Below are positions 589 through 50,304 of a stretch of 55,785 nt of DNA, piece after piece (the first letter of the stretch is position 1; the number at the start of each line of letters is the position of its first letter). The notes under the pieces were generated by a model. That model had not been told where the DNA came from. It ran no database searches and was given only the letters and a program-made list of their open reading frames with translations. The DNA lies in the IMG/VR virus record IMGVR_UViG_3300031652_000003, positions 1-55,785 of that record; one strand, 5' to 3'. The position numbers and the translations under genes are program-made. The DNA is from a virus. Its lineage: Duplodnaviria; Caudoviricetes.

Positions 589-942
589 TAACGATGGCGG
601 TATGGGTAGTTTGCCCAACGCACTGCGCCAGACCTGATTTGAAATACTAAACATTAAAATATTTAGCGATGGATTTTAGAAAATTACACGTAATAATTGG
701 AGAGTTAGAACTTGATAATATAAAACTGGCTTCCAAGGGAGATAAGAAGGCATTAAATATACTTGCATTGACACAAGCATTTAGAATAATTGAGCATAAG
801 TACAGAAAAGGAACTGAATGTATAAATTGTGGTTCAAAAAATACTCAAATTGAAATTATATGTAATGACTGTGCAAATATAGAACCGCGCGAGGGAATTG
901 ACCTCGATTTGAAAAACGGTAAATTACCTAAATTTGATGTTA
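589..942. mobile_element. attC-like element (TAAC...GTTA) with the 5' part of ORF 669 in its loop
   Basis: Left arm taacgatggcggtatgggtagtttgcc pairs imperfectly with right arm ggtaaattacctaaatttgatgtta. Confidence 0.6.
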
Positions 943-1100
943 GCTCACTTATTGATTTTAAAGAAATGCGTAAAAACTTCTTTAAAGAACACACATCTAC
1001 AGACTCATTCTTACATATACCTAAGGTAATTACACATCCACATAATCTATTTGAGTGGTTCAAAGCTGAAATAATTGAATATCTTAGGGCTGATTGCTAA
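669..1100 (+). CDS. Hypothetical protein with a CxxC..CxxC Zn ribbon, fused across a cassette junction at 939
   Basis: ORF track; CINC/CNDC. Confidence 0.7.
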   Translation: MDFRKLHVIIGELELDNIKLASKGDKKALNILALTQAFRIIEHKYRKGTECINCGSKNTQIEIICNDCANIEPREGIDLDLKNGKLPKFDVSSLIDFKEMRKNFFKEHTSTDSFLHIPKVITHPHNLFEWFKAEIIEYLRADC

Positions 1101-1157
1101 GGTTGAAACGTATACGGTCGTAGCTACCAATAATTGAAAATACAAAACTTTAAATAC

Positions 1158-1367
1158 ATGAAAGAAATAACAATAATATGCGATGTTTGCCAAAAAGTAC
1201 TGGATGATGAGTACATAAGATTAGGCAGTGAAAGCGAACAGGATTTACACTTTGAAAATAAGCTACCAAATAGGAAAGTTGGCGAAACTATAAATATAGC
1301 CAGATCTAGAGATTTACATTTCTGTTGTAAAGATCATTTTGTTAAGTACTTTTTTGAACAGGATTAG
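1158..1367 (+). CDS. Small hypothetical protein (CDVC...HFCC, possible Zn finger)
   Basis: ORF track; ATG at 1158 after an A-rich leader. Confidence 0.65.
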   Translation: MKEITIICDVCQKVLDDEYIRLGSESEQDLHFENKLPNRKVGETINIARSRDLHFCCKDHFVKYFFEQD

Positions 1368-1445
1368 TGGGTTTTATCATCTACAACAAGCGAATAAATA
1401 AAAACAAAAAAGGTACATAGTAATAATTTTAAAATATTTTTAGAG

Positions 1446-1778
1446 ATGGAAAATTTAAAACACAATTTAAGAAAACAGATTTGCATGGAAGTAGATGCAA
1501 AAAACATTGATGGTAAAACGGCAGCAAGACTGCTTGAATCTATTAATAATTTGTATGATGACAAATTAAAGAAATTAGAACATCATAGGGATACAACGAT
1601 AGGTTTATGGGCATTTGATTGTGCCCCTAAACAATTAATTGAAAAATTTGTAAATAGCCAAAACGATGCTTGTAGTTTATTTACGGAAGACGTTGATAAA
1701 CTAATAAAAGAGTGGGAGAGTTTTTGTAATAATAAAAATATAATCGAATCACCATTTTTTCAAATAAAAGAATATTAA
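1446..1778 (+). CDS. Hypothetical protein
   Basis: ORF track. Confidence 0.65.
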   Translation: MENLKHNLRKQICMEVDAKNIDGKTAARLLESINNLYDDKLKKLEHHRDTTIGLWAFDCAPKQLIEKFVNSQNDACSLFTEDVDKLIKEWESFCNNKNIIESPFFQIKEY

Positions 1779-1788
1779 CTAAAAAGAC

Positions 1789-2124
1789 ATGAAAAAAATA
1801 GAAAAACTCCCTAAATGGGAATACGAAAAAGCAAAGCAGATTGTTTCAGAATACGAAGCTCAATTCTCTTTATCTTTTGTTAAAGGGCATTTTTCTATTA
1901 ATGATTTAGAAATCTATTCAGAATCAATTAGCGTTCCTAAATTAACTGAAAAGATATTTGATGAGCGATGTTGTTGTGTATTAGAACAAGAATTGAATAA
2001 GCGAGTAAACGGCGTTGAATGGGCTAATACTGATGATATGGGGCATTTGGTTATAAGCTTTTACAGAAGAACAGTAACAGATGAAGATATCAAAGCTGTT
2101 ATTGACTCTTTAAATGCCCTTTAA
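1789..2124 (+). CDS. Hypothetical protein whose C-terminal part is a cassette (1879-2125)
   Basis: ORF track; the stop codon is the TAA of TAAC. Confidence 0.7.
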   Translation: MKKIEKLPKWEYEKAKQIVSEYEAQFSLSFVKGHFSINDLEIYSESISVPKLTEKIFDERCCCVLEQELNKRVNGVEWANTDDMGHLVISFYRRTVTDEDIKAVIDSLNAL

Positions 2125-2125
2125 C
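1879..2125 (+). mobile_element. Integron-like cassette with perfect 14-bp complementary ends
   Basis: gttaaagggcattt (1879-1892) / aaatgccctttaac (2112-2125). Confidence 0.75.
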
Positions 2126-2244
2126 GGTTAATTTATGTTGTCGTGGCTGCCATCAAAAAGCTACACAATTTAAAACAAATAAAAACTTAGATATGAGTAC
2201 AGAAAATTCAAATACCAAACAGCCACACACTACAGATAGTATTA
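2122..2244. mobile_element. attC-like hairpin with GTTA decayed to ATTA, carrying the start of ORF 2193
   Basis: taacggttaatttatgttgtcgtggctg vs cagccacacactacagatagtatta. Confidence 0.6.
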
Positions 2245-2885
2245 TGCTTTCGGTGGTTAAAGTCGATTTTTCAAAACTTATCGGTAATAAATATCCACTT
2301 GAAACTAAAATGGCAATATTGGACTGGATGCTTAAGACAGGCAAGGGGTTTGACCACCAACACGGATGGAATAGAAATGGGATTAATAAATCTTTACTTG
2401 ATTATTCAGCAAACAATCACAATACTCCTGTTTGTTTGCCAAAAAACAAAGATTATAATTTATTTTTTGATGCCTTATTTGCAAGAGCTGTTTATGCACA
2501 AGAAAATAAACCTCTAAAAAAATGGAGAGAAAAGGAATCCGTTAAGCCAAACAAGTATCGTATGTTAAAATTTAACGATGCGGTTCCAGTATGTGAGCAA
2601 AAATATTTTTCATGGCTTATTGGAGATATTTTTAAGTTTGATGGAAAGCTTCTGAAAAAGAAATTACATCATCCTGAATATTTAAACCGAACCGAACCAA
2701 AAATACTCTGGATATCAATTTCCACAATTGGAAATGGTTGGATGGTTCAATATCAATTTTCATTTAAAGAATATAATTATGAACCAGGTTGGACAAATGG
2801 TTATCATCAAAATGAAAATGAATCTATTTGGAAATTTCTAAAACGCAGCTATGATGAATTATGTACTGTCATAGCTAAAACATAA
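2193..2885 (+). CDS. Hypothetical protein in cassette 2241-2886 (attatgcttt / aaaacataac)
   Basis: ORF track; stop overlaps TAAC. Confidence 0.75.
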   Translation: MSTENSNTKQPHTTDSIMLSVVKVDFSKLIGNKYPLETKMAILDWMLKTGKGFDHQHGWNRNGINKSLLDYSANNHNTPVCLPKNKDYNLFFDALFARAVYAQENKPLKKWREKESVKPNKYRMLKFNDAVPVCEQKYFSWLIGDIFKFDGKLLKKKLHHPEYLNRTEPKILWISISTIGNGWMVQYQFSFKEYNYEPGWTNGYHQNENESIWKFLKRSYDELCTVIAKT

Positions 2886-3114
2886 CGGTTTATGTATGGA
2901 AAGCATACAACAAGCGAATAAATACCATATAAAAAAATATTAACTAAAAATAATGATATGAAAAGAATGAAACTTTATAATCGGAAACAAACAATTAGAG
3001 CTATGAAAGTAGCTTTTATTACACTCATAGTTATTATAGCTGCCGTTCTTATTTTAATAAATTGCTCTTCTTTTTAACTTATGATAATATTTGTTAAACT
3101 ATAATCAAAAAAAC

Positions 3115-3330
3115 ATGAATAATTTAGAAAATACAACCGGACAACCTCCTAAATGGGAGCACAAAATTGTAATAGATAAATACTTAGGTTATGGTATTAT
3201 GGATGAAATAAACCAACTTGGACAACAGGGATGGGAAATGGTTTCATCTACTAGTGTTGTAGTTGAAGGTACAACTACTCAAATAAATTATTTGTTCAAG
3301 AGGCTTAAAAGACAATCATTAAACAATTAA
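3115..3330 (+). CDS. DUF4177-like small protein
   Basis: KWEHKIV...INQLGQQGWEMVS...YLFKR motif. Confidence 0.7.
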   Translation: MNNLENTTGQPPKWEHKIVIDKYLGYGIMDEINQLGQQGWEMVSSTSVVVEGTTTQINYLFKRLKRQSLNN

Positions 3331-3473
3331 GATGTACCTAGGATTATGAAAAAGCAGCAATTTACCAATATTTTAATAACATGTTTTCAAACATTACATA
3401 AATGTGGCCCATAAAAAATGCATTTTATATGAAAGTTTTATGATTTTATAGTTGATTATTCAAATATTAATGT

Positions 3474-3481
3474 TATATTTG
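3474..3481 (+). promoter_or_regulatory. Bacteroidota -7 promoter box
   Basis: TATATTTG matches TAnnTTTG in an AT-rich intergenic region. Confidence 0.6.
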
Positions 3482-3633
3482 TTAAAGAAAACAATGAGAT
3501 ATTAATTTAAAACTTGAGCATTTAAAATGGAATCCAGAGGCTGATTTTTTAAAGCCAATGATTGAAAGAAGAAAAACAGAATTAACTCAGTTGCAAGAAA
3601 GATTAGATTACTTATTTGAAAAAACTTGTTAAA

Positions 3634-3957
3634 ATGGGAGCAGGAGGAAAAAGAGAAGGAGCGGGGCGCAAGCCTTGTTCCGATAAAAAACAAACAGTTG
3701 CTTTATATATAGAAACTTCAATTATTAACGCACTTGGTGGCCTTGAAAGCACAAAGCAAATCCTTTATAGTTTTGCAAAAACTGAGGCGGGTTGGGAAAA
3801 GAATAAGAATACTTGTACTAAATCTTATGAATGCGTTATTGACCAACAAAGTGATCTGCTAAAGGCTTGGCTGGTATGGAGATTAAAGCATCCGTATAGT
3901 GATTTCAGCACACAGGATTATGATATAGGAGAATTTTTAAAAGCCTATAATGATTAG
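3634..3957 (+). CDS. Small DNA-binding-like protein (GGKREGAGRKP N-terminus) with an appended C-terminal module
   Basis: Motif typical of small phage or antitoxin-like DNA-binding proteins. Confidence 0.6.
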   Translation: MGAGGKREGAGRKPCSDKKQTVALYIETSIINALGGLESTKQILYSFAKTEAGWEKNKNTCTKSYECVIDQQSDLLKAWLVWRLKHPYSDFSTQDYDIGEFLKAYND

Positions 3958-3997
3958 AAAATGATATTATTACATAACAATTTAAAACTATTGAATT

Positions 3998-4315
3998 ATG
4001 AAAACAAGCAAAAAAGAGATAGATTATTCATATATCAACAATAATAATTTTACCAAAGATGCGCGCAAGCACACATCATGCAACCACGAGCTTGCTAAAG
4101 ATGAAATTTGGTTAGGTAATACAAGTGGAGTTGATATTCCTAAACACTATGCTTCATTAAAGACTGTTAGATTGGGAGAGCAAGCATATTGTATAAAAGG
4201 AAAGCCTTTAAGTAGGGATTATTACAGACCATTGATTCTGAACAAATCCGAGCAAGCTCAACACGAGGAAATATGTAAGAAAAGATTTATAGAGGCTCAA
4301 ATGAGATACAATTAG
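3998..4315 (+). CDS. Hypothetical protein
   Basis: ORF track. Confidence 0.65.
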   Translation: MKTSKKEIDYSYINNNNFTKDARKHTSCNHELAKDEIWLGNTSGVDIPKHYASLKTVRLGEQAYCIKGKPLSRDYYRPLILNKSEQAQHEEICKKRFIEAQMRYN

Positions 4316-4404
4316 TAGTATTTGAGATAACAAAAAAAATAAATTAACCTGCCTTTGCTCCTTTAGAAGTCTGGAGTTTGGGGAACAAACAAACATAAAA
4401 CATC

Positions 4405-4689
4405 ATGAAATCTCTTAATGAAAACTTAGCTAAAAAAATACCAGCGATAATTACATCGATCACTCTAGCTGTTGTAGCATATTTTTTATTATCATGTTCG
4501 AATCCTCAACAATTAACCGAGCCTAATTATAACGATAGAATTGTTGTAGGATATTCAAAGAACATGAAGTATTACAAAGTTGTCGATCAGAATGAGATTT
4601 CTAGAACGGATATCCGTATTGATAGTATTGTTAGGCCTGTAGGTTCTGTTTTTATTTCAAAAAACAGGGGTGTTTATTGTAGATATTAG
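4405..4689 (+). CDS. Putative lipoprotein
   Basis: Hydrophobic stretch followed by an LLSC lipobox. Confidence 0.55.
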   Translation: MKSLNENLAKKIPAIITSITLAVVAYFLLSCSNPQQLTEPNYNDRIVVGYSKNMKYYKVVDQNEISRTDIRIDSIVRPVGSVFISKNRGVYCRY

Positions 4690-4720
4690 TGAAATTTTAA
4701 GCGGCTTACTTTTACCGCAT

Positions 4721-5063
4721 GTTAGCAAATCGTAAAGCGAACGGATTATGAGCAAGAAATTATATTTTAAGGATGGCGATGATGAAAAATGTTTCCAATT
4801 AAGCTACTTTAAATGGCTACTTGACTATGATAACTTAGATGAAATTACTGTGTGTGAAGCGCAACCGCAAGATGTAGAAGGTTTCTTTTGGTGTAGGGAA
4901 TACGAAACTGCTATGGATAAAAACGAAGGTGGTTGCGGGTGGAGTTGCAAAGGATACTTACCTCGAAATGGTTTTAATGGTTGCTGTAAACATTACTCAC
5001 TTAAATTTTATGAACCGACATGTAAATGTTTAACGATACGCAAGTGAGCGTATGTTTGCTAAC
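4721..5063 (+). mobile_element. Integron-like cassette holding ORF 4748-5047
   Basis: gttagcaaa (4721) / tttgctaac (5055-5063), followed by the conserved site. Confidence 0.75.
4748..5047 (+). CDS. Cys-rich hypothetical protein
   Basis: ORF track. Confidence 0.7.
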   Translation: MSKKLYFKDGDDEKCFQLSYFKWLLDYDNLDEITVCEAQPQDVEGFFWCREYETAMDKNEGGCGWSCKGYLPRNGFNGCCKHYSLKFYEPTCKCLTIRK

Positions 5064-5094
5064 AAGCGAATAAATACCACGTACGAACACGTAC
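5060..5094. repeat. Conserved array-end site (copies at 1384, 2908, 5060, 5442, 6212, 8368, 12049, 15879, 46183, 48134, 48909, 49214, 51177)
   Basis: YAAC-AMGCGAATAAATACCA-Y-GTACG-N4-CGTAC; the palindrome starts 21 nt after the first base of YAAC in six copies. Confidence 0.9.
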
Positions 5095-5139
5095 AGTAAA
5101 AAATATTTTGGTTTAAAAAACTCAAAAACAAAAATAAAG

Positions 5140-5418
5140 ATGGGAGTTGATGCAAAATTATTAAACAAAAAAACTGGAGATAAAATATACATTGACAGGT
5201 ATTACAATCTACAGAATAATTATACACATTACTTTGATGAAGCTAATAAGTTGAGTGGAGATGGAATGGAACGAGATGAGCTTGTTGAATTATGTGATGA
5301 TTTGATAACATTATCCCATTTAAGTACAGAAATGTTAATAGATATACGCGATAATGTGAAAAAATTAAATAAAGAAGATAGGTTTATCATTATAGATGAA
5401 AATAATGATAAATACTGA
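5140..5418 (+). CDS. Hypothetical protein
   Basis: ORF track. Confidence 0.65.
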   Translation: MGVDAKLLNKKTGDKIYIDRYYNLQNNYTHYFDEANKLSGDGMERDELVELCDDLITLSHLSTEMLIDIRDNVKKLNKEDRFIIIDENNDKY

Positions 5419-5625
5419 TATGTGTAGCCTTTTATTGCCTACAACGCGAATAAATATTTTAGAATTTATTTTAAAACTCAAAAAACTATGAAAGCTAAAT
5501 TAGAACAAGAATGGCGAGTATATTACATAAAGCATCAGATAGCTTGTGCCAAAAAAGCTGGAATTGAAGTGATAATCAAATGTCCAACTAAAATGAATTG
5601 ATATGTTGTCCTTAAAAAAAAAATA

Positions 5626-5940
5626 ATGAAACGAATTTATATAAGTGGAAAAATAACAGGTTTAGACACTCTTGAAGCAGCAAGAAAGTTTCAAGATGCA
5701 GAACATTACCTAATCATGAATTATGATAACGTAGAGATTGTGAATCCTATGAGAAAAGTACCTCATAAAAAAGAAAAGACGTGGGAACAATGCATGATTG
5801 GAGATATAAGCTTATTGTTTGGATGCGATACTATTTATATGCTTGATAATTGGGAAAGTTCGAAAGGAGCAAGAATAGAATGTAGTATAGCAAAAGAAAT
5901 GAGTAAGAATATATTATTTCAAAGTGCGTTGGGAAATTAA
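5626..5940 (+). CDS. DUF4406 / nucleoside 2-deoxyribosyltransferase-like protein
   Basis: IYISGKITG...NP...W..CM..DI..L..CD.IYML.NW..SKGARIE. Confidence 0.8.
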   Translation: MKRIYISGKITGLDTLEAARKFQDAEHYLIMNYDNVEIVNPMRKVPHKKEKTWEQCMIGDISLLFGCDTIYMLDNWESSKGARIECSIAKEMSKNILFQSALGN

Positions 5941-5970
5941 CGCTAAATCTAAATTAATACAGTACGAATT

Positions 5971-6225
5971 ATGAAAAAGATAGATAAAATATTTGATGAC
6001 CTACATTACGAGCTGATAACTGAGAAGCAAGCAAAACAGCAAGTGTTGGATTTATTTAGTATTAGCGGTTGTTACTCAATAACATTTGGTAGGGACTTGA
6101 AATGTAAAGTAAAAGTTACAAATGGTGCACCAGAGGTTGAAGCCGCCATGAATGGTTGGGGCGACAATATAAGTTTAAGCGATATTTCAGTAGATAAACT
6201 GCAATTACCGCTAACACGCGAATAA
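5971..6225 (+). CDS. Hypothetical protein fused across cassette 6061-6215
   Basis: attagcggt / accgctaac ends. Confidence 0.65.
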   Translation: MKKIDKIFDDLHYELITEKQAKQQVLDLFSISGCYSITFGRDLKCKVKVTNGAPEVEAAMNGWGDNISLSDISVDKLQLPLTRE

Positions 6226-6298
6226 ATACCACGTGCGATTACGTACAGTGGGTAAAATAAATAATGATAATAAAATGGAAAAGAATTAAATATAAAAC

Positions 6299-6502
6299 AT
6301 GGAAAAATACAAGATTGCCGGACATAAGGTAGAGTTAATTAATGAGGATTGTTTGATATTCGGCCCTTATGCAATTGGGCTTCCTTTAGTTTTAGAGAAG
6401 ATTGATAAAGGGGATAAGAAAATAATCATGCATGATGGTGTCGAGATACCAATATCTCAACTAAAAGAAATTCAAGCTTGGATTAAAACATTAACGTTAT
6501 GA
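6299..6502 (+). CDS. Hypothetical protein
   Basis: ORF track. Confidence 0.6.
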   Translation: MEKYKIAGHKVELINEDCLIFGPYAIGLPLVLEKIDKGDKKIIMHDGVEIPISQLKEIQAWIKTLTL

Positions 6503-6726
6503 CACAAGAACAGATTGAAAAAGTAAATGGTATAGCAAATAAGCTTGCAAAAGAATTGTGGAGAAGTGAACACTTGGAATGCTTCGGGAACCTTGAAATT
6601 AAGCTACAAGAAATAGTTAAAAATTTAACTATACCTGATGTTGGCGAATCGGATTGTGTCCATTGTGGTGGTTCTGGTGAATTAGCTGGCGGTTTGGTAG
6701 GTTGTCACTATTGTGGCAACTATTAA
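6499..6726 (+). CDS. Hypothetical protein whose CxxCxG module lies in cassette 6640-6745
   Basis: gttggcgaa / tttgctaac pair with G:T wobbles. Confidence 0.65.
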   Translation: MTQEQIEKVNGIANKLAKELWRSEHLECFGNLEIKLQEIVKNLTIPDVGESDCVHCGGSGELAGGLVGCHYCGNY

Positions 6727-6792
6727 TAGCAAGCTGTTTGCTAACGTATTGTAATATGAAATAGGGCGAGATAACCAACAGAAATTGATTAA

Positions 6793-7629
6793 ATGAACGA
6801 TAAAAAAAAGGGGAGGCCAATTGGTATATTATATAATGACCATTTCCAAAATTCAAAGAAATATGGAACTCCGAAAGCGCAATTAATTATTGCTGATGTA
6901 CCATATAATTTAGGCAATAATGCCTATGCAAGTAATCCAGCTTGGTATAAAGATGGAGACAATAAAAATGGTGAAAGCGATCTTGCAGGAAAGGAGTTTT
7001 TTGATACTGACAAAAATTTTAATCCTGCTGAATTTATGCACTTTTGTAGTAAGATGCTAAGACCTGAACCAAAGGAAAAAGGACAAGCACCTGCAATGCT
7101 TTTATTTTGTGCTTTTGACCAGCAAATGTATTTTATAGAATTGGCTAAAAGATATGGATTAAAAAACCACATCAATTTAGTATTTCGAAAAAACTTTTCA
7201 GCTCAGGTTTTAAAAGCAAACATGAAAATTGTAGGTAATTGTGAATATGGATTGTGTTTATACCGGGAAAAGCTGCCAAAATTTAACAATAAAGGCAAAA
7301 TGATATTTAACTGTATTGATTGGGAGAAAGATCCAAATACAGTTAAGAAATTACACCCAACTCAAAAACCTATTGGATTATTGAAAAGATTAATTGAAAT
7401 ATTTACAGATGAAGGAGAGGTAATAATAGACCCTTGCGCAGGTAGTGGTAGTAGTTTAGTGGCGGCTATCCAATGTAATAGAAAAGCATATGGTTTTGAG
7501 ATAAAGAAAAATTTTTATACTGATGCTAATAACTGGATAAATGAAACATTGCAAGATAAATTAGATATTGAGCGATATGGATTTGCTAAAACAAGAATCG
7601 AAAAAGAAGGTGCAACTTTATTTTCATAA
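6793..7629 (+). CDS. DNA N6-adenine/N4-cytosine methyltransferase (beta class)
   Basis: DVPY catalytic motif, HPTQKP, DPCAGSGS SAM-binding motif. Confidence 0.9.
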   Translation: MNDKKKGRPIGILYNDHFQNSKKYGTPKAQLIIADVPYNLGNNAYASNPAWYKDGDNKNGESDLAGKEFFDTDKNFNPAEFMHFCSKMLRPEPKEKGQAPAMLLFCAFDQQMYFIELAKRYGLKNHINLVFRKNFSAQVLKANMKIVGNCEYGLCLYREKLPKFNNKGKMIFNCIDWEKDPNTVKKLHPTQKPIGLLKRLIEIFTDEGEVIIDPCAGSGSSLVAAIQCNRKAYGFEIKKNFYTDANNWINETLQDKLDIERYGFAKTRIEKEGATLFS

Positions 7630-8081
7630 TGCTTTTGTAAAAGCAAGTATGGAGTTATAAAACTCAATTATAGGTGACACATATCACCACAACAATTCAA
7701 ACATTATTTGCGCTATATCGTATACTCTAATAAAAACTATCATGAATTACGAAGCGCACATACAGGTTTTCACAAAAACAATTATTCCTAATGCCACTTT
7801 TGAAGCATTAGCGGAGCTAGAGCAAGAATTCAAAGCTCAGTATGATAAAGTTGAAACTATTATATACAAAGCAATAAAAACTAAAATTGAACAACATGAA
7901 AAATATAGCAATTAAATCAGCCGAACAAGGAATAGCCTTATTCAACACTAATCACGGCGAATTCATAACTTCAGTAGAAGATCTCAGTCCATCAGCTAAA
8001 CTAGCTCGCGCTATAATATTAACAATATCGCATCCTGGAGAGGTTAGTTTTGATAGTGGTAAAGGTGATTGTGAGTTGTTT

Positions 8082-8205
8082 TAACGTTTTGTGTAAGGCA
8101 TCGTTGCGATTTTATAACTTAAACACAAAGAAATGAATAAAGCAAAATCAGGAACCCAGACAGATGGCAAAGAACTAGCTAAGCAATGTGCTTTACATGT
8201 TGTTA
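8082..8205. mobile_element. attC-like hairpin containing the start of ORF 8133
   Basis: taacgttttgtgtaaggcatcgttgc vs gcaatgtgctttacatgttgtta. Confidence 0.75.
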
Positions 8206-8357
8206 GTGAGAGTAATTTGTTTGAATGCCCTGCGTGTGATCAAGTAGCATGTGAGGTTGTTGAAGAATTTATAAGCAAGGCAAACGAAAAAAGAAGCTAC
8301 GATATAGATGTTACGCACTGCGTTTGTAGAAATTGTGGTCATAGTTGGTGGGATTAA
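8133..8357 (+). CDS. Zn-ribbon protein whose ribbon lies in cassette 8202-8371
   Basis: CPAC...CRNC; gttagtgaga / tcttgctaac ends. Confidence 0.7.
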   Translation: MNKAKSGTQTDGKELAKQCALHVVSESNLFECPACDQVACEVVEEFISKANEKRSYDIDVTHCVCRNCGHSWWD

Positions 8358-8556
8358 TCATTCTTGCTAACAAGCGAATAAATACCATGTACAATTTCGT
8401 ACATTAAAAACTAAAACATGATAGTATTAATTGTAGTATTTTTAACTATTCCTTTCTTCTCAGCATTTATTTTTATTTCAAAATATGCAAGAGATTTGAA
8501 AGATGACAATGAAAGTATTTATAATCAGATTATAAAATAAATCTTTTTATGTAAAC

Positions 8557-11631: not shown

Positions 11632-11720
11632 TAACGTTGAGCGTATGGTTTCGTAAGCCATGCACCAACGATTCAAATTTAGCAATAACTTCACTGGCTT
11701 ATGAACTATACGCATTGTTA
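11632..11720. mobile_element. attC-like hairpin (89 bp)
   Basis: taacgttgagcgtatggtttcgtaagcca vs tggcttatgaactatacgcattgtta. Confidence 0.8.
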
Positions 11721-12052
11721 GCGTTTCGTTTTTGAGCGGTGGCAAAACAGGATAAAATGACAAGAGAAGAACATTTATTAGTGATACTTGGCGAGGAGTG
11801 TAGCGAAGTTGCGAAAGAAACAGCTAAAGCACTTAGGTTTGGGTTGGATGACAAAGAACCCGGACAGGATAAAACCAACAGGCAAAAAATAGCAACTGAG
11901 TTCAACGACCTTTTTGCAGTTGTGAGAATACTTATTGATGACGGAATACTTAATGATAAAGAAGTTATTGTCGTTGAGCAAATGGAAGCTAAAATGCAAA
12001 AAGTAGAGAAGTACTTAAAGTATTCAAAGAGTGTTGGCAAATGAACGCTAAC
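11717..12052 (+). mobile_element. Integron-like cassette carrying the MazG-like gene
   Basis: gttagcgtt / aacgctaac, then the conserved site at 12049. Confidence 0.8.
11739..12044 (+). CDS. MazG-like NTP pyrophosphohydrolase
   Basis: LGEECSEVAKE...EFNDL (EExxE...ExxD). Confidence 0.75.
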   Translation: MAKQDKMTREEHLLVILGEECSEVAKETAKALRFGLDDKEPGQDKTNRQKIATEFNDLFAVVRILIDDGILNDKEVIVVEQMEAKMQKVEKYLKYSKSVGK

Positions 12053-12102
12053 AAGCGAATAAATACCACGTACGATTTCGTACGCTAAAAACTAAACAAT
12101 AT

Positions 12103-13455: not shown

Positions 13456-13887
13456 ATGAGACTAAGAAGAATATGGGAATTACCAGTTAAAAAATTTGAT
13501 GGTGATATGATAGATAATTGTTTTTACGTAAAAGACTTATACGCGCCAGAGTATTACGTGAAGATGAGCGAAATATTTGATTGGATTAAAGAAAAGGCAG
13601 AAACAACAGGTTTGACTGTTGAGCTAAAAGATAACAATATAATGTTTATTAGCGGTTCGTGCTTATCACGAGAAGAAGATGAATACCACAAGAAAAATAG
13701 TATCTCAAATGTTAGCGGAGTTGGTATTATGCCTTGGTTGATTTGTCACTATAACGAAAGAGAAGGTGGATATTTGACTGTTGGTAAAATATACCAAGCA
13801 GTTTCTATTAATGAAGATGGTTGGATAATAAAGGACGACAGTGGTGGTTATAATATATATAGTAGTGCCTACTTAAATAAGGTATAA
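13456..13887 (+). CDS. Hypothetical mosaic protein
   Basis: ORF track; stop overlaps TAAC. Confidence 0.6.
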   Translation: MRLRRIWELPVKKFDGDMIDNCFYVKDLYAPEYYVKMSEIFDWIKEKAETTGLTVELKDNNIMFISGSCLSREEDEYHKKNSISNVSGVGIMPWLICHYNEREGGYLTVGKIYQAVSINEDGWIIKDDSGGYNIYSSAYLNKV

Positions 13888-14025
13888 CTTTGAGTATAAA
13901 AATCTGATGAGGTACGAACTTGTTTTATATAGTGTTACCCATCGTTAATTATTATGAAGCCATGATTGCTAACGGTTGCCTATGTATCGTATGACGATAG
14001 GAATATGGATATATAGCTATTGTTA
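13885..14025. mobile_element. Two short attC-like hairpins (13885-13937, 13970-14025) around an ORF-less spacer
   Basis: taactttgagtataaaa/ttttatatagtgtta and taacggttgcctatgtatc/gatatatagctattgtta. Confidence 0.65.
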
Positions 14026-14225
14026 GCATTAGTACGGATTGAATAAACAAAAAACTTAATAAAATGACAAGAACAGAAATTAGAGATTTAGTAGTAAAGG
14101 CAGTTGTAAATACGGAAGAACTTACAAATGTAACTGATACTATTTTTAAGGAAATAGGTGATGCTTACAATAAAGGATTTAATCAAGGCAAACGAGTACT
14201 AATAAAAATTTAAAATACACAACCG

Positions 14226-14303
14226 ATGGCGAAAAAAGTTTTTATAAAGTACCAGCATATTGAGAGATTATTTGTATATTTACAATATGATTGGAATATA
14301 TAA
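14226..14303 (+). pseudogene. Orphaned 5' end of an RNA ligase allele (MAKKVFIKYQHIERL...)
   Basis: Matches the N-terminus FKKYMHIERF of the ligase at 14897. Confidence 0.65.
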
Positions 14304-15826: not shown

Positions 15827-15967
15827 TCAGCTTTAATTTAATAATAAAATAGCGTATTATGAGAGTATTATTTTTTTATAACTGAATAAATACCACTTGG
15901 CAATGAATATATAGTAATGATGAATTAATTTCGATCTATAACTATTGACTTATGTTATATAATTTTG

Positions 15968-16055: not shown

Positions 16056-16074
16056 GTTTATAAACTTTAAAAAC

Positions 16075-16118: not shown

Positions 16119-16143
16119 CTGAGTATTAACCAACATAAATAAT

Positions 16144-29405: not shown

Positions 29406-29407
29406 TC

Positions 29408-29935: not shown

Positions 29936-29947
29936 AAATTAAAGAAA

Positions 29948-37165: not shown

Positions 37166-37980
37166 TGGCAACGATAATACCATACATGAACCCATTGAGG
37201 TTCACAAAAAGAGGAGCAGGTGTAGATATAGACTACCATACTAGGCTTCCCCGTTATGATCTTATGTATAATGGAGTTGACTATCAAAGAGGTATAATCG
37301 CTAATAAAAGCTATTACCCTGATCACTTGAAAACTAATAAATTAACATTTGAGTTTTTGACGACTACAGCTCAAAGCAGCATACAGGCTATTATCCTTAA
37401 GCCAGATGGAACTTCCAACAATTTGACTATAAAAAATATAACGCCAACTGGATGGGTATCCAAGCCTATATACACATTTACTTATTATCCCATAGACGTA
37501 GGTTATCATCAGGTATCGATAAAGACAGAGACATGGTATGATTCGGATATATTTTACAATAACATAAACGGAGATGATTCACTTAAGAACTTGGTTGAGT
37601 TTGAATATCGAGACAGCCAAAATAGATACGCTGCGTTTTTTACAGGGGATAACGGAAGTTGGATACCTAAAGCTTATTATACAGGGTTCGTTATAGAGGG
37701 GGATGGAGAAACAGAACAATCATTATTCATTGACCAACCCGGGAACCCAACTATTCTCGAAACCACCGAATCAGATGGGTTAATAGTGACGCTAACAGAC
37801 TTGACAATAAAAGACTATAAACGCATAAGATGGCAAAGAAAATGCGATGATTTTCGTGTAAACGGCTCTAAAGTTGTATGCTTAGATATCTCCTCAGAAA
37901 GGAAAGACCCTAACTCAAATATGATTGATGTGACATTAAAATGTGCTTATGCTGAAAATAATGGTTATTATGTTTATTAA
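37165..37980 (+). CDS. Tail protein
   Basis: Synteny. Confidence 0.55.
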   Translation: MATIIPYMNPLRFTKRGAGVDIDYHTRLPRYDLMYNGVDYQRGIIANKSYYPDHLKTNKLTFEFLTTTAQSSIQAIILKPDGTSNNLTIKNITPTGWVSKPIYTFTYYPIDVGYHQVSIKTETWYDSDIFYNNINGDDSLKNLVEFEYRDSQNRYAAFFTGDNGSWIPKAYYTGFVIEGDGETEQSLFIDQPGNPTILETTESDGLIVTLTDLTIKDYKRIRWQRKCDDFRVNGSKVVCLDISSERKDPNSNMIDVTLKCAYAENNGYYVY

Positions 37981-38007
37981 ATTTCGTAACTTGCAAAAAA
38001 TATAACA

Positions 38008-40539
38008 ATGAAAAGGATATTTATCATATTAGGACTATTTATATTTATTCTAAATAGCTATGGTCAACAAGATGGTGAGTTTGATAACTTAGATGTTTTG
38101 TATGAGTCAAGATATAAAGGTGTATTAATTGAAGACTGGATTAATGACAGTACTCCGGCAAGTTCTATAGCTGGCGATAACGGACTCACAAAAACAGGTT
38201 CAAACATAGGGCTAGGTGGCACTTTGAATACTAATACTGAAATATTAGGTGTTGGTTATCCATTAACTTTAGGAACAAATTTAAGTAGGTTGGGCGATTT
38301 TACTGTTCAGTCTATAGATACATATATAAGTGCGAACGGAGAGTTTACTTTAGAAGTTGGAGGCGTTGAATGGGTATTTAATGGAGTATATTTCATCTCT
38401 GACGGCGGTGATACATTAATGACAAATGATTTAGTTGACGCCAAAATATTAGCAAACGCATCTTATTTACCCTTTAACTACAATTACAATTACAGCACCA
38501 CGATAACAGATTCTCGCCCGGGAGTTGGTTATTTCAGATTAAATAACGCCATTTATTCAAATGTAACTTATATATTTATTGATAATTTTGATGTAAATAG
38601 TACAGATAAAAGTGATTATTTACAGCAACCCGACACAGGCTCTTATATAAGTATATCAGACGGGGTTAATTATGTTAACTTCCAACTTAGCGGAGCTTTA
38701 ACTGCGGCTAGTTCTTATTATAAATATGCCGTCACTTACTTGTCGCATAGCGGTGTTTTATCAGGCACTTGTAAGATAAGCATGGATTTAAGCAACAATT
38801 TAGGAAGAAGCGATGCTGATAGCTTATATCATGAATATTCTAGCAAATGGTTAGCAAATGGTGACACAATACTAATACAAGATACATCAACCTATGCAGA
38901 CACAGCAACTTATGCGTTAAATACTCCTTCAGATTCATTGTATCACAAAGACACTCAAACGTGGTTATTAAATGGCGGCACAATACCAAAGTCTGATAGT
39001 GTTAGGTTAGAAATGACAGCAACGAATAAGCTTACAACAGATTCTATTTACTCTGAAAATGATATTGTTTTATATTCCGGCGAGTCATTAGAGCTTAATT
39101 TTGGAGGAAATATTTACACTTATGATGGCGCTTACTTCTATGACGATTCTGATACTTTAGCTAAAAAATCTGATATCCCATCGAGTGATAGTTCTTGGGT
39201 TTCATTTACTACAGACACCGTTAAAAATAAAACTAGTGCTGGATTGGTATTACAATCTACATCAGGGAGTGTAATTTTAGATTCGGATTCGGACACAGTT
39301 AAAATTACTACCGGGTCTAACTCATACAAATATATCAATGACACGGCAGATTATGCTTTAAACAACCTTAGAGCGAATCTATTTAGAAGTTATAATAGCT
39401 ACTTTTCTTATGCGGATAGTTTAGTGTTCTCAGGAGAACCTATATTATTCAACGGAGTTCTTGTTATAGCAGATTCAAATGTAGGGTCACCACGATTATA
39501 TTCTTATTTTTCATACGATAATAGTACATCATTTATGTATCAATATAGCAATGCTTTCAAGGTTCAACAGTCAAGCGCAGGTATATCATCAAGAATTATG
39601 CTAACCCCTCTTAACGTAGCAGCTATTACGGCAACTGATGCATCTGATAATGTATCTTACATAAGTGCTGTTCCTACCGAGGGAGTTAAATTATATCAAC
39701 TTGATGCTGGAACATCTACAACTATACCTGTATTGACGATAAGCAAAGATTCTGTATCAATAACTAAAAATGACATCCCTTTATATACATTTAGGGATGA
39801 TACTTTAGATATGACTACATCAAGTTTGATTACTAAATCTATAATAGCTTATGAAATTACTAGATTAAATAAAGCTGAAACAGACACTTTAATAATGGGG
39901 GCAGATTCGGCTACACAAATATTGCCAGCGCAAACTTACATTCCATTGATGGACTTGGACAGCATACAAGTTGATAAGCTAGTAGGCTCTACAAATAGAG
40001 ATAGTATTTATATTGGAGGTAATTTATACATCTCAGCAGATTTGTTTGTATATGGTAAATCTTTTTTGAATAAATATACAGCTCATGCCTATATTTCGAC
40101 AGATAGTGTCGCGACAACGTCTCTATCAACTACATGGACATTTTTAGGGAGTGGAACAAACAATAAGTTCATTAACGATTTAAGTGATGGGTTCACATTT
40201 GACGACGATACATTAGTGTTCGATCCAATGTCAACAGATTCTAGAGATTCCGTTCGGCACATATTGAATTATGATGGACTAAGTGCAACTAGTTCTGTTA
40301 ATGAAACGGTATATTATGGGATATTTGTAAAACATGTTGGAGGGTCTTATATCGAACAGGCTGCTTTTACAAAGTCTACAACAACGAGTACAGCGGACGT
40401 GTATTATCCAGGAGCTATATGCACAGGTGCTGTGTTGTGGTTAAAGGATGGCGATAAAATCCAAATTAGAGTCAAATGTGAAACAGGGACAACAACATTA
40501 AGTACAACATCGTTTGGAATACTATTAAAAGAGGAATAA
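38008..40539 (+). CDS. Tail-fibre or adhesin-like protein with a Sec signal peptide
   Basis: MKRIFIILGLFIFILNSYG-Q; NGLT....IGLGGTL motif; S/T/D-rich. Confidence 0.65.
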   Translation: MKRIFIILGLFIFILNSYGQQDGEFDNLDVLYESRYKGVLIEDWINDSTPASSIAGDNGLTKTGSNIGLGGTLNTNTEILGVGYPLTLGTNLSRLGDFTVQSIDTYISANGEFTLEVGGVEWVFNGVYFISDGGDTLMTNDLVDAKILANASYLPFNYNYNYSTTITDSRPGVGYFRLNNAIYSNVTYIFIDNFDVNSTDKSDYLQQPDTGSYISISDGVNYVNFQLSGALTAASSYYKYAVTYLSHSGVLSGTCKISMDLSNNLGRSDADSLYHEYSSKWLANGDTILIQDTSTYADTATYALNTPSDSLYHKDTQTWLLNGGTIPKSDSVRLEMTATNKLTTDSIYSENDIVLYSGESLELNFGGNIYTYDGAYFYDDSDTLAKKSDIPSSDSSWVSFTTDTVKNKTSAGLVLQSTSGSVILDSDSDTVKITTGSNSYKYINDTADYALNNLRANLFRSYNSYFSYADSLVFSGEPILFNGVLVIADSNVGSPRLYSYFSYDNSTSFMYQYSNAFKVQQSSAGISSRIMLTPLNVAAITATDASDNVSYISAVPTEGVKLYQLDAGTSTTIPVLTISKDSVSITKNDIPLYTFRDDTLDMTTSSLITKSIIAYEITRLNKAETDTLIMGADSATQILPAQTYIPLMDLDSIQVDKLVGSTNRDSIYIGGNLYISADLFVYGKSFLNKYTAHAYISTDSVATTSLSTTWTFLGSGTNNKFINDLSDGFTFDDDTLVFDPMSTDSRDSVRHILNYDGLSATSSVNETVYYGIFVKHVGGSYIEQAAFTKSTTTSTADVYYPGAICTGAVLWLKDGDKIQIRVKCETGTTTLSTTSFGILLKEE

Positions 40540-47414: not shown

Positions 47415-47660
47415 ATGATTAAAGAAATAGTAGAAGCAACGATTAAAGAATGTTACCCTAAATTTGTAAGCGTAACAACACTACCAAGCGATTTTGAAAC
47501 ACAGGTGCTTAACGAAGTAAGAGAGCAAGTTAAAAATTTGAATATACCTACTGTTAGCAACCGAAGGGAACTGCTAATTTCCTACACTTTAAAGATGCTT
47601 AGTTGCACAGACGAACACGCAGAAACAATGGTTGATAGTTATTTGAGCTTATATGGCTAA
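47415..47660 (+). CDS. Hypothetical protein fused across a GTTAGC junction at 47553
   Basis: KNLNIPTVSNRRELL. Confidence 0.6.
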   Translation: MIKEIVEATIKECYPKFVSVTTLPSDFETQVLNEVREQVKNLNIPTVSNRRELLISYTLKMLSCTDEHAETMVDSYLSLYG

Positions 47661-47683
47661 TATTTTGCATGTGGTCTTAAGGC

Positions 47684-47730
47684 TAACGGTAAGAATAAAT
47701 GGGCGTTTTAATGCCATTTATTTATTGTTA
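47684..47730. mobile_element. Short attC-like hairpin (47 bp)
   Basis: taacggtaagaataaatgggcg / tgccatttatttattgtta. Confidence 0.75.
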
Positions 47731-48137
47731 CCAACTGCACGGTATTAACAACTAAAATTAAATTGAAATGATATACTTAACGGTAATTAACACGATAGCG
47801 ATAATTTACATATTAACGCACAAACAATTTTCTATTCATAAAAACGAGACATTCTCAAACAATACGTTGTTAGGTTATGGTTTGTATTATAAGAACAAAA
47901 GGAGATTATATACACCCATAAGAAATGCAAGAAGAACAGAGCTTAACGAGGAAGTTCACAGGATGATAAATGACACAGTTAACAAGCATTACACAATAAG
48001 AGCTAAATTTAGCTGGATAAAAACCATAACCGATGCTGAGCAGTTCAGAAAAGACTATGAAGTAGTAGATAGAAAATTAGTTAACGAGCTTGTGGATAAC
48101 TTTAAATTGGAACACCAACAGTAGTGTTGTTGGTAAC
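47727..48137 (+). mobile_element. Integron-like cassette with ORF 47768-48124
   Basis: gttaccaactgcac / gtgttgttggtaac (12 of 14 complementary), then the conserved site. Confidence 0.8.
47768..48124 (+). CDS. Hypothetical protein with an N-terminal TM
   Basis: ORF track. Confidence 0.65.
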   Translation: MIYLTVINTIAIIYILTHKQFSIHKNETFSNNTLLGYGLYYKNKRRLYTPIRNARRTELNEEVHRMINDTVNKHYTIRAKFSWIKTITDAEQFRKDYEVVDRKLVNELVDNFKLEHQQ

Positions 48138-48358: not shown

Positions 48359-48898
48359 ATGGAAATAACTAATAAAATAGTTGAAAGCTATAAATTTAAA
48401 CGAATAAACAACAGTATGTGGCGCAGAGATGAAATGACATTACAAAATGCATACACTCATAGAGGCGACAATATCTACGAGAAAATACTAAACACCAAAA
48501 AAGCTTATAAGGCATGTTATAAAGGTAAATTTGTAGCAATGATTGAAACTGAAATGGGACTACACCATTTAGTTTATATGTATTTTGAGCGGGGCGCAAA
48601 TATGGAAATTAAGACGTATGTAATATCCAGTGAAACAGATAGCCAAGTAATACAAGCTAAAAACATAGCGTCTGTAATATGTAAATACGGTTTAATTTGT
48701 GGCGATATAAATAAAGAAATTGTAGCCATAATTGAACTTGAGCGAGGGGTAGAGTTTTTAAAGCAATTTTCGAGCATGACACAAGCAAATGAATTATTAC
48801 CGCGTGTTATCAAAATGCAGCTTCTTTCCGACGACCAACTTAGAATATTAAATGATACTTATAATAGATTACTTGGCGAAGAACCTACAAAATTATAG
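48359..48898 (+). CDS. Hypothetical mosaic protein
   Basis: Internal ttgagcgRggg repeats and a GTTA junction at 48806. Confidence 0.6.
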   Translation: MEITNKIVESYKFKRINNSMWRRDEMTLQNAYTHRGDNIYEKILNTKKAYKACYKGKFVAMIETEMGLHHLVYMYFERGANMEIKTYVISSETDSQVIQAKNIASVICKYGLICGDINKEIVAIIELERGVEFLKQFSSMTQANELLPRVIKMQLLSDDQLRILNDTYNRLLGEEPTKL

Positions 48899-48942
48899 TT
48901 ATTTGCGCTAACAAGCGAATAAACACACTAAAACTTAATACA

Positions 48943-49173
48943 ATGAAACAAAAATCGAGTGTACTAGAAAAAATAAGACAAAGAATGCCATTGGAAACTA
49001 AACTTAAAATATCGTTTCAGATGCACGATTATGAAAACTGGAAAGATGGTGAATATTTTGGAGATACTGAAAAGTACGTTAAAATAGCACTTGATGAAAT
49101 AAAGGAACATATACAAATACGCTATCCTAATGTTAATATAGATAAATTGTGTTTATACCGTGTTGTAAAATAA
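48943..49173 (+). CDS. Hypothetical protein
   Basis: ORF track. Confidence 0.6.
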   Translation: MKQKSSVLEKIRQRMPLETKLKISFQMHDYENWKDGEYFGDTEKYVKIALDEIKEHIQIRYPNVNIDKLCLYRVVK

Positions 49174-49390
49174 CATAAGCGACATAAAGAATTTACTGGT
49201 GGGGAATGCGCTACAATAAGCAAATAATACAAACTATAATAAAATTAAACACAAAGATTTATTATGTCAATATTAATTTGTATATTTGCCTAATAGAACG
49301 CGGGAAGCCTCTTTGTAATGCTCACTAACTCACGTCTTCGAAGCCGGATTAATTTCCGGTTTATTTAAAACTTTAAAATTACAATTGTCA

Positions 49391-49570
49391 ATGAAACTAA
49401 TTAAAACATCTGAGAAAGTATTGGTTTGGATGCATCGGACAGGTAAGACTCAATTAGAAGTTTCTGATGCTATGAATATAAATAGACAAGCCTTGGCATC
49501 TAAAATAAAAGATAATGTTTTTAGTGTGTCCGATCTAATGAATCTCAAGCGTTTAGGGTTTAACGAATAG
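49391..49570 (+). CDS. XRE/Cro-like HTH regulator
   Basis: KTQLEVSDAMNINRQALASKIK. Confidence 0.7.
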   Translation: MKLIKTSEKVLVWMHRTGKTQLEVSDAMNINRQALASKIKDNVFSVSDLMNLKRLGFNE

Positions 49571-49630
49571 ATTTTTTTGGCCATAAATTTTAACAAATGT
49601 AAATTTTTATTATTAATTAAAATTAAGATT

Positions 49631-49897
49631 ATGAAAGAAATTAAACACACAGCTCGTGGGGGTACTGATATTTGTATTTACGAACATACTGAGACTCAAA
49701 TTATAGGTAGCTTCTTTAATGATAAAGATAAACCTGAAGTCGGAGATATTATAAATACAGCCTACGAAAAACCTAATTACGTTGTAGTTAAAATCATCGA
49801 AAATAGAGATGCTTGTATTCATTCTGATTGCAGAAAAAATCCAAACAATGCCTACTTTATTCTTGAGGTAGATAGAGTAAATCCTCAACGACTCTAA
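49631..49897 (+). CDS. Hypothetical protein
   Basis: ORF track. Confidence 0.6.
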   Translation: MKEIKHTARGGTDICIYEHTETQIIGSFFNDKDKPEVGDIINTAYEKPNYVVVKIIENRDACIHSDCRKNPNNAYFILEVDRVNPQRL

Positions 49898-50013
49898 TAA
49901 GAATAATAGCCAAAAAATAGCGAGAAACTTCTATAACCTCGCATAATTAACAAAGAGATATGAATGTAAAAACTATTGCAGACGTCTTCGACAAGGTAAA
50001 GGATAATGTGCTA

Positions 50014-50137
50014 TAACAGTAACTTGTAAGTGTAGTTTGGGATTAAACCCACTACATGACCAAGATAGTAATAACTTAATAAATTGATATATAGATGAAT
50101 AACGCAGCGAAACCCAAATTACATTTACAAAATGTTG
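50014..50137. mobile_element. attC-like hairpin containing the start of ORF 50095
   Basis: taacagtaacttgtaagtgtagtttggg vs cccaaattacatttacaaaatgttg. Confidence 0.8.
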
Positions 50138-50304
50138 TGCACCGTTTATTAAGGGTAGTTTTGACACCCCTTATAATTGTGACCATGTGCATAGTTGCTT
50201 TAAGTGCCGTAATTAGCTTACCAATTTGGATAGTGAGTGGCAAAACGATTATACCGTATGCTGTAAATTTAGCCCATAAACACATGGAATTAGCTTGGGA
50301 TTAA
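50095..50304 (+). CDS. Small membrane protein whose TM part lies in cassette 50134-50316
   Basis: gttgtgcacc / ggtgcataac ends. Confidence 0.65.
   Translation: MNNAAKPKLHLQNVVHRLLRVVLTPLIIVTMCIVALSAVISLPIWIVSGKTIIPYAVNLAHKHMELAWD

Follow-up and report, generated by a model that had tools for sequence, protein, structure and literature searches.

Boundary-mediated shuffling has a precedent in the T4-type phages, in the elements termed PeSLs (promoter-early stem-loops; Arbiol et al. 2010, PMC2839356; Comeau et al. 2014, PMC4122927). PeSLs are short conserved composite motifs that are repeated in plastic early regions, flank small ORFans and act as exchange points between otherwise unrelated sequences. 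A second described system is the integron. Qi et al. (2023) predicted a cluster of attC sites, without an integrase, around the DNA methyltransferase genes of Polaribacter phage P12002L, and one of the predicted sites recombined with attI1 under IntI1 (PMC9892861). We have analyzed a phage genome related to P12002L, the 55,785-nucleotide IMG/VR virus record IMGVR_UViG_3300031652_000003 (Duplodnaviria; Caudoviricetes), and refer to this whole stretch of DNA as the window. It contains a system of boundaries, each unit having a conserved motif at its left end and two complementary arms at its termini. The combination of motif and arms is real, and clearly beyond chance. It extends the known phage cassette-shuffling signals, in that one of the boundaries may lie inside a gene.

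The window shares with the PeSLs the repetition of short composite motifs next to small ORFans in plastic early regions, and exchange points between unrelated sequences. It has twelve copies of a promoter-like motif, most with a short hairpin, and homology to the relative L021 has a breakpoint in one of them. However, PeSLs are intergenic with a local stem-loop, and are of a sigma-70 type to which the motif sequences of the window are unrelated. The window has a second signal, whose pairing bridges an entire unit (100-830 nt) and is unit-specific with compensatory changes, and the boundary is often within an open reading frame (ORF), with apparent exchange of protein parts. With attC clusters the window shares GTT..AAC ends, conservation of structure but not of sequence, one-directional arrays of small genes and methyltransferase cargo. 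Unlike an integron it lacks an integrase and, between units, the R''-L''-L'-R' hairpin. Its pairing encloses the cargo, a strong motif is conserved upstream, and some units are start-less and are read in frame from the upstream ORF. In polymorphic toxin loci a conserved peptide (VENN in CdiA, PxxxxDPxGL in Rhs) marks the point at which C-terminal modules are swapped by recombination. The window has a similar short conserved coding stretch at the exchange point, but here both N- and C-parts vary, the proteins have 70-150 residues, the same stretch also occurs in non-coding DNA, and the C-part has a pairing right end. The palindromic elements of Rickettsia, which are found inserted in frame in genes, all belong to a single repeat family. 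The window likewise has palindromic DNA in frame within ORFs, but the content of each unit is unique and only the ends are shared.

We searched for pairs of complementary arms anchored on GTT..AAC in the window, four related uncultured phage records and four contigs. Pairs had at least 9 bp with no more than one G-T pair, and the right arm lay within −12 to +25 of an ORF stop. This gave 31 arm-defined pairs, distributed over the window, G001, G003, G004, L022, L034 and L035. The motif was derived from 26 junctions picked by pairing only, with the upstream sequence disregarded. At fixed spacing upstream of the junction these have A at −16 (19/26), T at −15 (25/26), G or T at −14 (25/26), T at −10 (25/26), A or T at −9 (26/26), T at −8 (24/26), A at −7 (25/26) and T at −1 (24/26). 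Downstream there is GTTA (23/26), and then CGTT near +9 to +12. The left signal is therefore summarized as A(−16) T(−15) K(−14) N3 TWTA N5 T-GTTA N5-6 CGTT, where the hyphen before GTTA marks the junction. The right boundary is AAT(G/T) from −12, N6, TAAC and then a purine, and is located on or just after the stop codon. The inner 9-17 nt of the two unit ends are complementary, unit-specific and co-varying.

The left signal of whole-gene units is placed 14-75 nt before the start codon or on it. When intragenic it is read as ..L-(P/H)-x-x-x-V.., and the unit is then the C-terminal part of the protein. The upstream motif is identical for in-ORF and non-coding junctions, and it is therefore a nucleic-acid signal. 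The leader peptides KQCALHV, KNLTIPD, KNLNIPT and PKLHLQN, which an earlier sequence-only reading of the window had drawn from a hairpin loop or the upstream gene, are the translated left-boundary DNA motif, and an origin in the loop is not seen. The motif is visible by a position-specific table only; a loose regular expression for the upstream peptide or DNA motif gave 13 matches compared with 9.2 in shuffles, which is no enrichment.

The position weight matrix (PWM) spans −17 to +3 and scores in bits. At 14 bits or above it finds 12 sites on the + strand of the window, all at 0.9-14 kb or 47.5-51.2 kb, and two on the − strand. The sequence-only reading had listed 12 junctions, each an in-frame Val or Ile codon, and this is correct throughout: GTT (10) or ATT (2) is a codon of the containing ORF at 12 of 12 positions. 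Seven of the 12 are real boundary elements. Three of these belong to the 26 training sites (8202, 22.9 bits; 1879, 21.6; 50134, 15.8), and four lie outside the training set (6640, 17.9; 939, 16.0; 49162, 15.3; 47553, 15.2). The motif is weak at 6061 (7.3) and 48806 (6.7), and absent at 2241 (1.6), 13711 (−0.9) and 10853 (−6.5). Arms were tested separately at the listed sites, with pairing from GTT onward and the right arm within −12 to +30 nt of the ORF stop. Eight sites had been defined by end pairing. Of these, 1879, 50134, 8202 and 6640 have it, 6061 has it weakly, 47553 has a core only, and 939 and 2241 have none. No right arm above the null was found near the ORF stop at 939, 2241, 10853, 13711, 48806 or 49162. 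Among the four sites put forward as weaker but agreeing, 49162 does have the motif; at 10853, 13711 and 48806 both a clear motif and an arm are lacking. At new motif sites, outside the PWM training set, the arm next to a stop reached 9 bp or more in 5 of 28 cases, compared with 5 of 600 control GTTA sites (Fisher p = 2.6e-5).

Long-range inverted repeats with GTT..AAC ends close units at 1879/2125, 50322/51149, 50134/50316, 8202/8371, 4721/5063, 11717/12052 and 47727/48137, and a tight hairpin at 51152-51180 was counted with them. The left arm lies either before a start codon, so that a whole gene is enclosed, or within an ORF. The right arm is on the stop codon or a few bases 3' to it, and abuts the promoter-like motif directly in five cases. 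Neighboring units are spaced by 1-5 nt (AAC-G-GTT, AAC-GT-GTT, AAC-GTATG-GTT). All units described below are on the + strand.

The unit in ORF 1789-2124 (1862-2125) has the left motif, with GTT 1879 encoding Val31, and a right arm at 2112-2125 that includes the stop TAA plus C; all 14 of 14 pairs are Watson-Crick. In ORF 50095-50304 (unit 50117-50316) PKLHLQN-VV at 50134 precedes a hydrophobic C-part, and the right arm at 50302-50316 forms 15 bp including two G-T pairs. ORF 8133-8357 (8185-8371) has KQCALHV-VSES at 8202 and a right arm at 8360-8371 (12 bp including three G-T), followed by the promoter-like motif. ORF 6499-6726 (6623-6745) has KNLTIPD-VGES at 6640, a 28-residue Cys-rich C-part and a right arm at 6736-6745 (10 bp including three G-T). 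ORF 5971-6225 contains a weak cassette (6061-6215), with ATT at 6061 and the right arm ACCGCTAAC at 6207-6215 pairing over 8 bp after an A-C mismatch at the first position. The left boundary at 47553 in ORF 47415-47660 (47536-47687, KNLNIPT-VSNR) has pairing limited to the 6-nt core GTTAGC/GCTAAC, with GCTAAC at 47682-47687. That at 939 in ORF 669-1100 (922-1100, NGKLPKFD-VSS) is followed by a C-part, termed X below, whose right arm is degenerate (TTGCTAAG). At 49162 (49145-49173) there is no arm, and ORF 48943-49173 ends three codons on (CLYR-VVK, then stop). Start-less C-terminal units with their own pairing ends do therefore exist, as had been proposed.

Other units enclose whole genes. At 4704-5063 (PWM 15.5) the left arm at 4721 is 27 nt 5' of the ATG of ORF 4748-5047, and the right arm at 5054-5063, pairing over 9-10 bp, is followed by the promoter-like motif. 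At 11700-12052 (PWM 19.6) the left arm at 11717 is 22 nt 5' of ORF 11739-12044 and the right arm is 12043-12052. At 47710-48137 (PWM 21.0) the left arm at 47727 is 41 nt 5' of ORF 47768-48124 and pairs over 9 bp with a right arm at 48129-48137. A two-gene cassette (ORFs 50487-50933 and 50933-51091) at 50322-51149 is closed by the 13/13 inverted repeat GTTGTATAGTGTA / TACACTATACAAC. Twelve of the 31 left arms, counted among those in an ORF, 5' of a gene or at a start codon, are of the whole-gene kind. The contrast drawn earlier with classical whole-gene cassettes therefore does not simply hold, given that about a third of these left arms are of that kind.

An 'empty' unit at 51152-51180 has a 9-bp stem GTTAGCTTT/AAAGCTAAC and the loop TCGTTTTAATG, followed by the promoter-like motif, and its loop words recur in relatives. 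Short hairpins of this sort are also seen at ~47700-47720 of the window, at ~3340-3370 of L031 and at ~10150-10185 of L032. Their stems differ and their loop words are near-identical (..CGTTTTAATG..); in filled units the same loop words flank the cargo, with CGTT after the left arm and AATG before the right arm. Around 4660-4735, ORF 4405-4689 ends at TAG, and the +1 frame is open from at least 4661 through GLLLPH-VSKS and a stop into the left arm at 4721. Either a frameshift or an N-part running a few codons into a whole-gene unit could account for this. The end of ORF 48943-49173 resembles it.

No paralogy of N- or C-parts within the window was detected below E = 0.05 among the 12 ORFs that contain the listed sites. 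ORF 6499 and ORF 47415 have a 15-residue local likeness at equal distance from the N-terminus. A scan of 11 of the 12 against Pfam and PHROGs (48359-48898 against PHROGs only; 48943-49173 left out) gave nothing significant. We also considered an invertible cassette, and dropped it, as judged by eye the reverse strands of 1879-2125 and 50134-50316 stop within nine codons.

We then searched the large protein databases for relatives of six of the 12 ORFs (those starting at 669, 1789, 2193, 6499, 8133 and 47415). In the ORF 669-1100 family the N-parts are of four unrelated kinds and the C-parts of three, likewise unrelated, and the joint is always (D/N)GKLPxx(D/L)-VS. Labeling the N-parts A to D and the C-parts X to Z, the window is A-X, P0018 is A-Y, P0019, P0020 and P0021 are B-X, L021 is B-Z, L035 is D-Y and G004 is C with an X-like C-part. 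The likeness of the L021 protein (ORF 5631) to P0019 is confined to residues 1-61. L035 resembles P0018 only once the linker is reached (87% over 70 aa), and G004 resembles the window in the C-part. The C-parts of L035 and G004 have their own GTTAGC..GCTAAC arms. In a second case the likeness of G004 30453 to G001 53428 is limited to the first 24 residues, and the 17-residue leader that they have in common precedes two unrelated bodies. These comparisons support exchange of N- and C-parts exactly at the Val in two families. The arms of ORF 1789-2124 can be compared with those of L031, whose homolog has 44% protein identity. The stem is GTTAAAGGG..CCCTTTAAC in the window and GTTAGAGGT..ACCTCTAAC in L031. 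Both differences are compensated, and one of them costs an Ala-to-Asp substitution. In this one case open to test, pairing is selected.

Site 2241 behaves differently from the start-less module that had been proposed there. In ORF 2193-2885 the ATT is immediately followed by an ATG. In most of the full-length sequences among 62 representatives the best-scoring stretch starts at query residue 16-24, five of seven related sequences have ~1-6 residues before the conserved block, and P0022 and P0027 have longer, unrelated N-tails. The ORF is a whole gene with its own start, and the homology begins a few residues past the site because the gene itself starts there.

The boundary system recurs in four uncultured relatives and, with the same architecture, in two cultured phages. 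Tenacibaculum phage JQ, the closest named phage (42% identity, terminase compared), has nine PWM matches of at least 12 bits. Arms of 9-17 bp ending 11-17 nt past an annotated stop accompany six of the nine; at a seventh (3572) the arm is 8 bp long and lies 20 nt past such a stop. Both methyltransferase genes of JQ are whole-gene units, and its two junctions within coding sequences are in frame 0. P12002L has an intragenic boundary in gp37 (..LLNLHV-VGSS.., with arms of 17 bp), and a pairing boundary also encloses a methyltransferase gene there. At 29237-30011 and 37263-38038 of P12002L (L045) we observe the left-type motif at both unit ends in inverted orientation, with the cargo (a methyltransferase and a Mom-like protein) on the opposite strand. 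This suggests that units are able to sit in either orientation.

Twelve copies of a promoter-like motif A(A/C)GCGAATAAATACC are found on the + strand, all intergenic, starting at 1388, 2912, 5064, 5444, 6216, 8372, 12053, 15880, 46187, 48138, 48913 and 51181. They span 1388-51195 in two clusters (1.4-15.9 kb and 46.2-51.2 kb), and lie 24-83 nt before the next start codon except for copy 15880 (264 nt). Seven have a clear short hairpin (GTACG N4 CGTAC) and that at 46187 a weaker one; the hairpins have no T run. A consensus scan for sigma-70 −35/−10 elements gave 76 sites compared with 83.8 in shuffles, the host probably being a flavobacterium with another promoter type. Three stretches (5052-5099, 12041-12088 and 51169-51216), each made up of right arm, promoter-like motif and hairpin, can be read as one open frame of 15 codons from the ATG within the AATG word (M-x-A-N-K/T-R-I-N-T-..). 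They vary in step with the hairpin rather than with codon positions, and this frame is therefore probably non-coding.

Some breakpoints between relatives lie at these elements. L021 is 98% identical to the window around the primase gene and mosaic elsewhere, and its homology to window 2915-3071 begins inside a promoter-like motif. In run X2, for which the contigs have low depth and come from one run, 6746 is directly followed by 8369 in one contig, the joint lying between two ..TTGCTAAC arms, with loss of a methylase gene and three small ORFs. Other joints are at start codons or remove the GIY-YIG gene. The 39-codon ORF 2958-3077 matches the first 38 residues (signal-peptide-like, ..LINCSS) of a 145-residue L021 protein. 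Its homology stops abruptly at ~3071 with no boundary motif, and the ORF is therefore truncated or recombined.

The sequence-only reading also stated that the junctions share one reading frame. In the ORFs of this genome GTT is in frame 0 in 46% of cases and ATT in 33%; across the phages studied the values are 52% for GTTA and 65% for TGTTA of ORF occurrences. GTTAG and GTTAA are never in frame 1, because a stop codon results. Sixteen of 19 arm-defined left arms within ORFs are in frame 0 (p = 0.059 against 0.65), compared with nine of 20 in a control in which the right arm was displaced into the ORF. Among the pairs listed, those of at least 24 bits are in frame 0 in nine of nine cases (p = 0.02 against 0.65). 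The new motif-defined sites within ORFs give 11 of 16 (p = 0.49), and as the PWM training sites are mostly frame 0 these are not fully unbiased. The combined value of 27 of 35 gives p = 0.002 against 0.52 but p = 0.089 against 0.65. The shared frame is thus barely above codon-usage expectation, and as an argument for the finding it is statistically weak.

The interpretation that we favor, with moderate confidence, is that the boundary system splits the early regions of a group of Flavobacteriaceae phages into units that are exchanged by short-homology recombination. The conserved boundaries would provide short patches of homology between co-infecting relatives. Exchange at these would most probably be carried out by the phage's own RecE-like exonuclease, NinB and NinG. 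Whole genes would be reshuffled, and where a boundary is intragenic, halves of proteins. In-frame joints would survive because most intragenic boundaries are in the same codon phase. The pairing would act on a folded single strand, presumably either RNA or DNA. A G-T pair recurs at stem position 10 (14/26), and this favors folding of the sense strand. Recombination between boundaries is preferred because there is no tyrosine or serine recombinase, no Y1 transposase and no attC hairpin, and a recombination set is present.

A number of observations weigh against this interpretation. Plain homologous recombination leaves the need for arm pairing unexplained, and 21 of the 28 new motif sites have a right arm of less than 8 bp. 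C-part X of the window has lost its arm yet the gene is intact; the protein can therefore do without pairing. Swapping was seen in two families only. The sequence-only reading had expected homology to switch at the Val, and while this is so for ORF 669-1100, 13 of 13 homologs of ORF 1789-2124, the ORF with the best pairing, are full length across the Val with the conservation highest just around the junction. The sole homolog of ORF 8133-8357 likewise runs on across the Val without a gap, at 70% identity and with DGKELAKQCALHVVSES unchanged. For ORFs 6499 and 47415 no relatives were detected in IMG/VR or among GenBank phages. The sequence-only reading had thus come upon a real and unusual boundary system and was right about one of its consequences, but it took the swap idea too far, applying it also to non-boundary sites and to genes in which no swap is seen. 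In relatives the indel joints 3997 to 4405, 14263 to 14936 and 13686 to 16324 are not at boundaries. Against the TGTTA baseline the shared frame falls short of significance, and the five conserved T or A at −1, −4, −7, −10 and −16 occupy wobble positions in frame 0. As the conserved bases then fall on third codon positions, the signal is cheapest for the protein in that frame.

A serious alternative, which we consider possible though less likely, is that the boundaries are purely expression signals of transcripts. The RNA would then begin near GTTA, at a left motif that acts as internal promoter or as processing site, and end at the right arm, and the two ends would pair to close and stabilize the message. 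The in-frame position would then be a by-product of codon usage, as the lack of a significant frame excess over the 65% baseline allows, and the N/C swaps would be ordinary mosaicism breaking at conserved sequence. In non-coding DNA the motif lies 14-75 nt before start codons, a typical 5'-UTR (untranslated region) distance. It is strongly strand-specific in the sense direction, with 12 matches in the window compared with two, and the G-T pairs, including the recurrent one at stem position 10, are on the sense strand. The closing stem is part of the minimum-free-energy fold of 1870-2135 (z = −3.0), but folding of 50125-50325 shows no gain over shuffles (z = −1.3), and there is no match to an Rfam family. 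Flavobacteria have TAnnTTTG as their sigma-A −7 box, located at −12 to −5 (PMC9723704). A perfect TAnnTTTG box ending 3 nt before GTT is found in two copies (939 and G001 53479), but in most copies the consensus (TWTA at −10 to −7, T at −1) is unlike it. Ribosomes would melt the arms inside a translated ORF, and two separate families break exactly at the Val.

A stronger form of the shuffling idea seems doubtful to us. Here a conserved docking signal ending in the in-frame Val codon would serve dedicated, phase-standardized domain shuffling, by which any start-less C-cassette, marked by ends that fold together on one strand, could be joined to any N-part, moved by folded-strand recombination or template switching and not by plain homology. 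If true, it would generate new early proteins (for host takeover or anti-defense) combinatorially, as a bacterial-virus counterpart of exon shuffling.

It is improbable that the units are integron-type cassettes, with ends that are attC-like sites folded from single-stranded DNA and cut between G and TT by a host integron integrase. The termini are GTT..AAC with a variable, co-varying inner sequence, as in R'/R'' boxes, and each cassette begins with bases complementary to its own 3' end, as the R' of a circular form would, with arms of 9-17 bp. Some weight is added by Qi et al., who place predicted attC sites, one of them recombined by IntI1, in P12002L (PMC9892861), and the methyltransferase genes of both JQ and P12002L are enclosed by boundaries of the window type. 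That the attC sites of that report are these same boundaries we infer from gene content alone. However, in six frames the genome contains no tyrosine recombinase, serine recombinase or Y1 transposase. PF00589 gave no match in six frames of the whole genome, compared with matches in 14 of 14 control genomes. There is no local R''..R' hairpin upstream, the best 7-mer partner within 20-200 nt of 17 junctions being equal to the null. In the window GTT/AAC form the outer base of the stem with the cargo inside, and in attC it is the reverse. The 1-5 nt between units is too short for attC, and the strong upstream motif has no attC counterpart.

Finally, a selection artefact, arising because GTT is a common in-frame codon in an AT-rich genome (TGTTA being in frame 0 in 65% of ORF occurrences) and sites were picked by translation, as was admitted in part for the weaker ones, stands at 10853, 13711 and 48806 and gains from the five of 12 sites below 8 bits (2241, 6061, 10853, 13711, 48806; three of them with no pairing at all), but it is very improbable overall and refuted for the system as a whole by the motif, derived with no regard to translation, at seven sites, four of the seven outside the PWM training set, the motif-arm association (p = 2.6e-5), the compensatory change in the distant homolog in L031 and the same architecture in annotated cultured phages.

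The window is a complete circular phage genome; bases 1-127 recur at 55659-55785 as terminal repeats. Its G+C content is ~32% and the + strand carries all the genes. These encode a large terminase, portal, tape measure, primase/helicase, RNA ligase, two DNA methylases, a DnaA-like HTH (helix-turn-helix) protein and a GIY-YIG endonuclease, along with the recombination set of RecE-like exonuclease, NinB and NinG. A salt-marsh metagenome is the label of a DNA run containing the window and possibly its source; no RNA run containing 600-8500 is listed. Given this label, and JQ being nearest by terminase, the host is probably a marine flavobacterium. The terminase-portal region gave no megablast match to GenBank phages, a tRNA scan of the window found none, and Rfam gave no match over the whole window at gathering scores. 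The early regions of L003/L023 and L022, with ~70% identical primase, have nothing usefully in common with the window.

Several other features were noted. The GIY-YIG/NUMOD3 endonuclease gene at 14260-14907, just 5' of the RNA ligase gene, is missing in L021 and in one run X2 contig (joint 14263 to 14936), a presence/absence pattern typical of a free-standing homing endonuclease. A ~100-nt non-coding element at 487-587 has a perfect 15-bp closing stem (ATGCTTTTAAGACGA / TCGTCTTAAAAGCAT), is 94% conserved in the otherwise mosaic L021 and has no Rfam match; it could be a small structured RNA. ORF 51459-52280, with a Lin1244-like N-terminal domain and just 5' of the primase/helicase gene, contains a 22-nt perfect inverted repeat with an 8-nt spacer (51830-51881), a candidate replication origin or operator. 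On the + strand the motif ACATGACAAATATCATTG is repeated before gene blocks at 8545, 12539, 16062, 17834 and 44865, and TTAACATAATATTA before structural modules at 17475, 22159, 22174, 27089 and 43940. These may be middle and late promoters. Within the tape-measure gene there is a ~250-nt tandem duplication at 32243-32692 (198 nt aligned, 74% identity).

Small early phage proteins are the main reservoir of uncharacterized host-takeover and anti-defense functions, and their diversification is poorly understood. The boundary signal, marking exchangeable units and at times exchangeable halves of proteins, provides a rule for parsing ORFan regions, and for predicting domain boundaries in proteins that have no homologs. 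The published attC cluster of a flavobacterial phage can be re-read as part of a wider, phage-borne boundary system. The hypothesis of rapid innovation is testable in the cultured phages JQ and P12002L.

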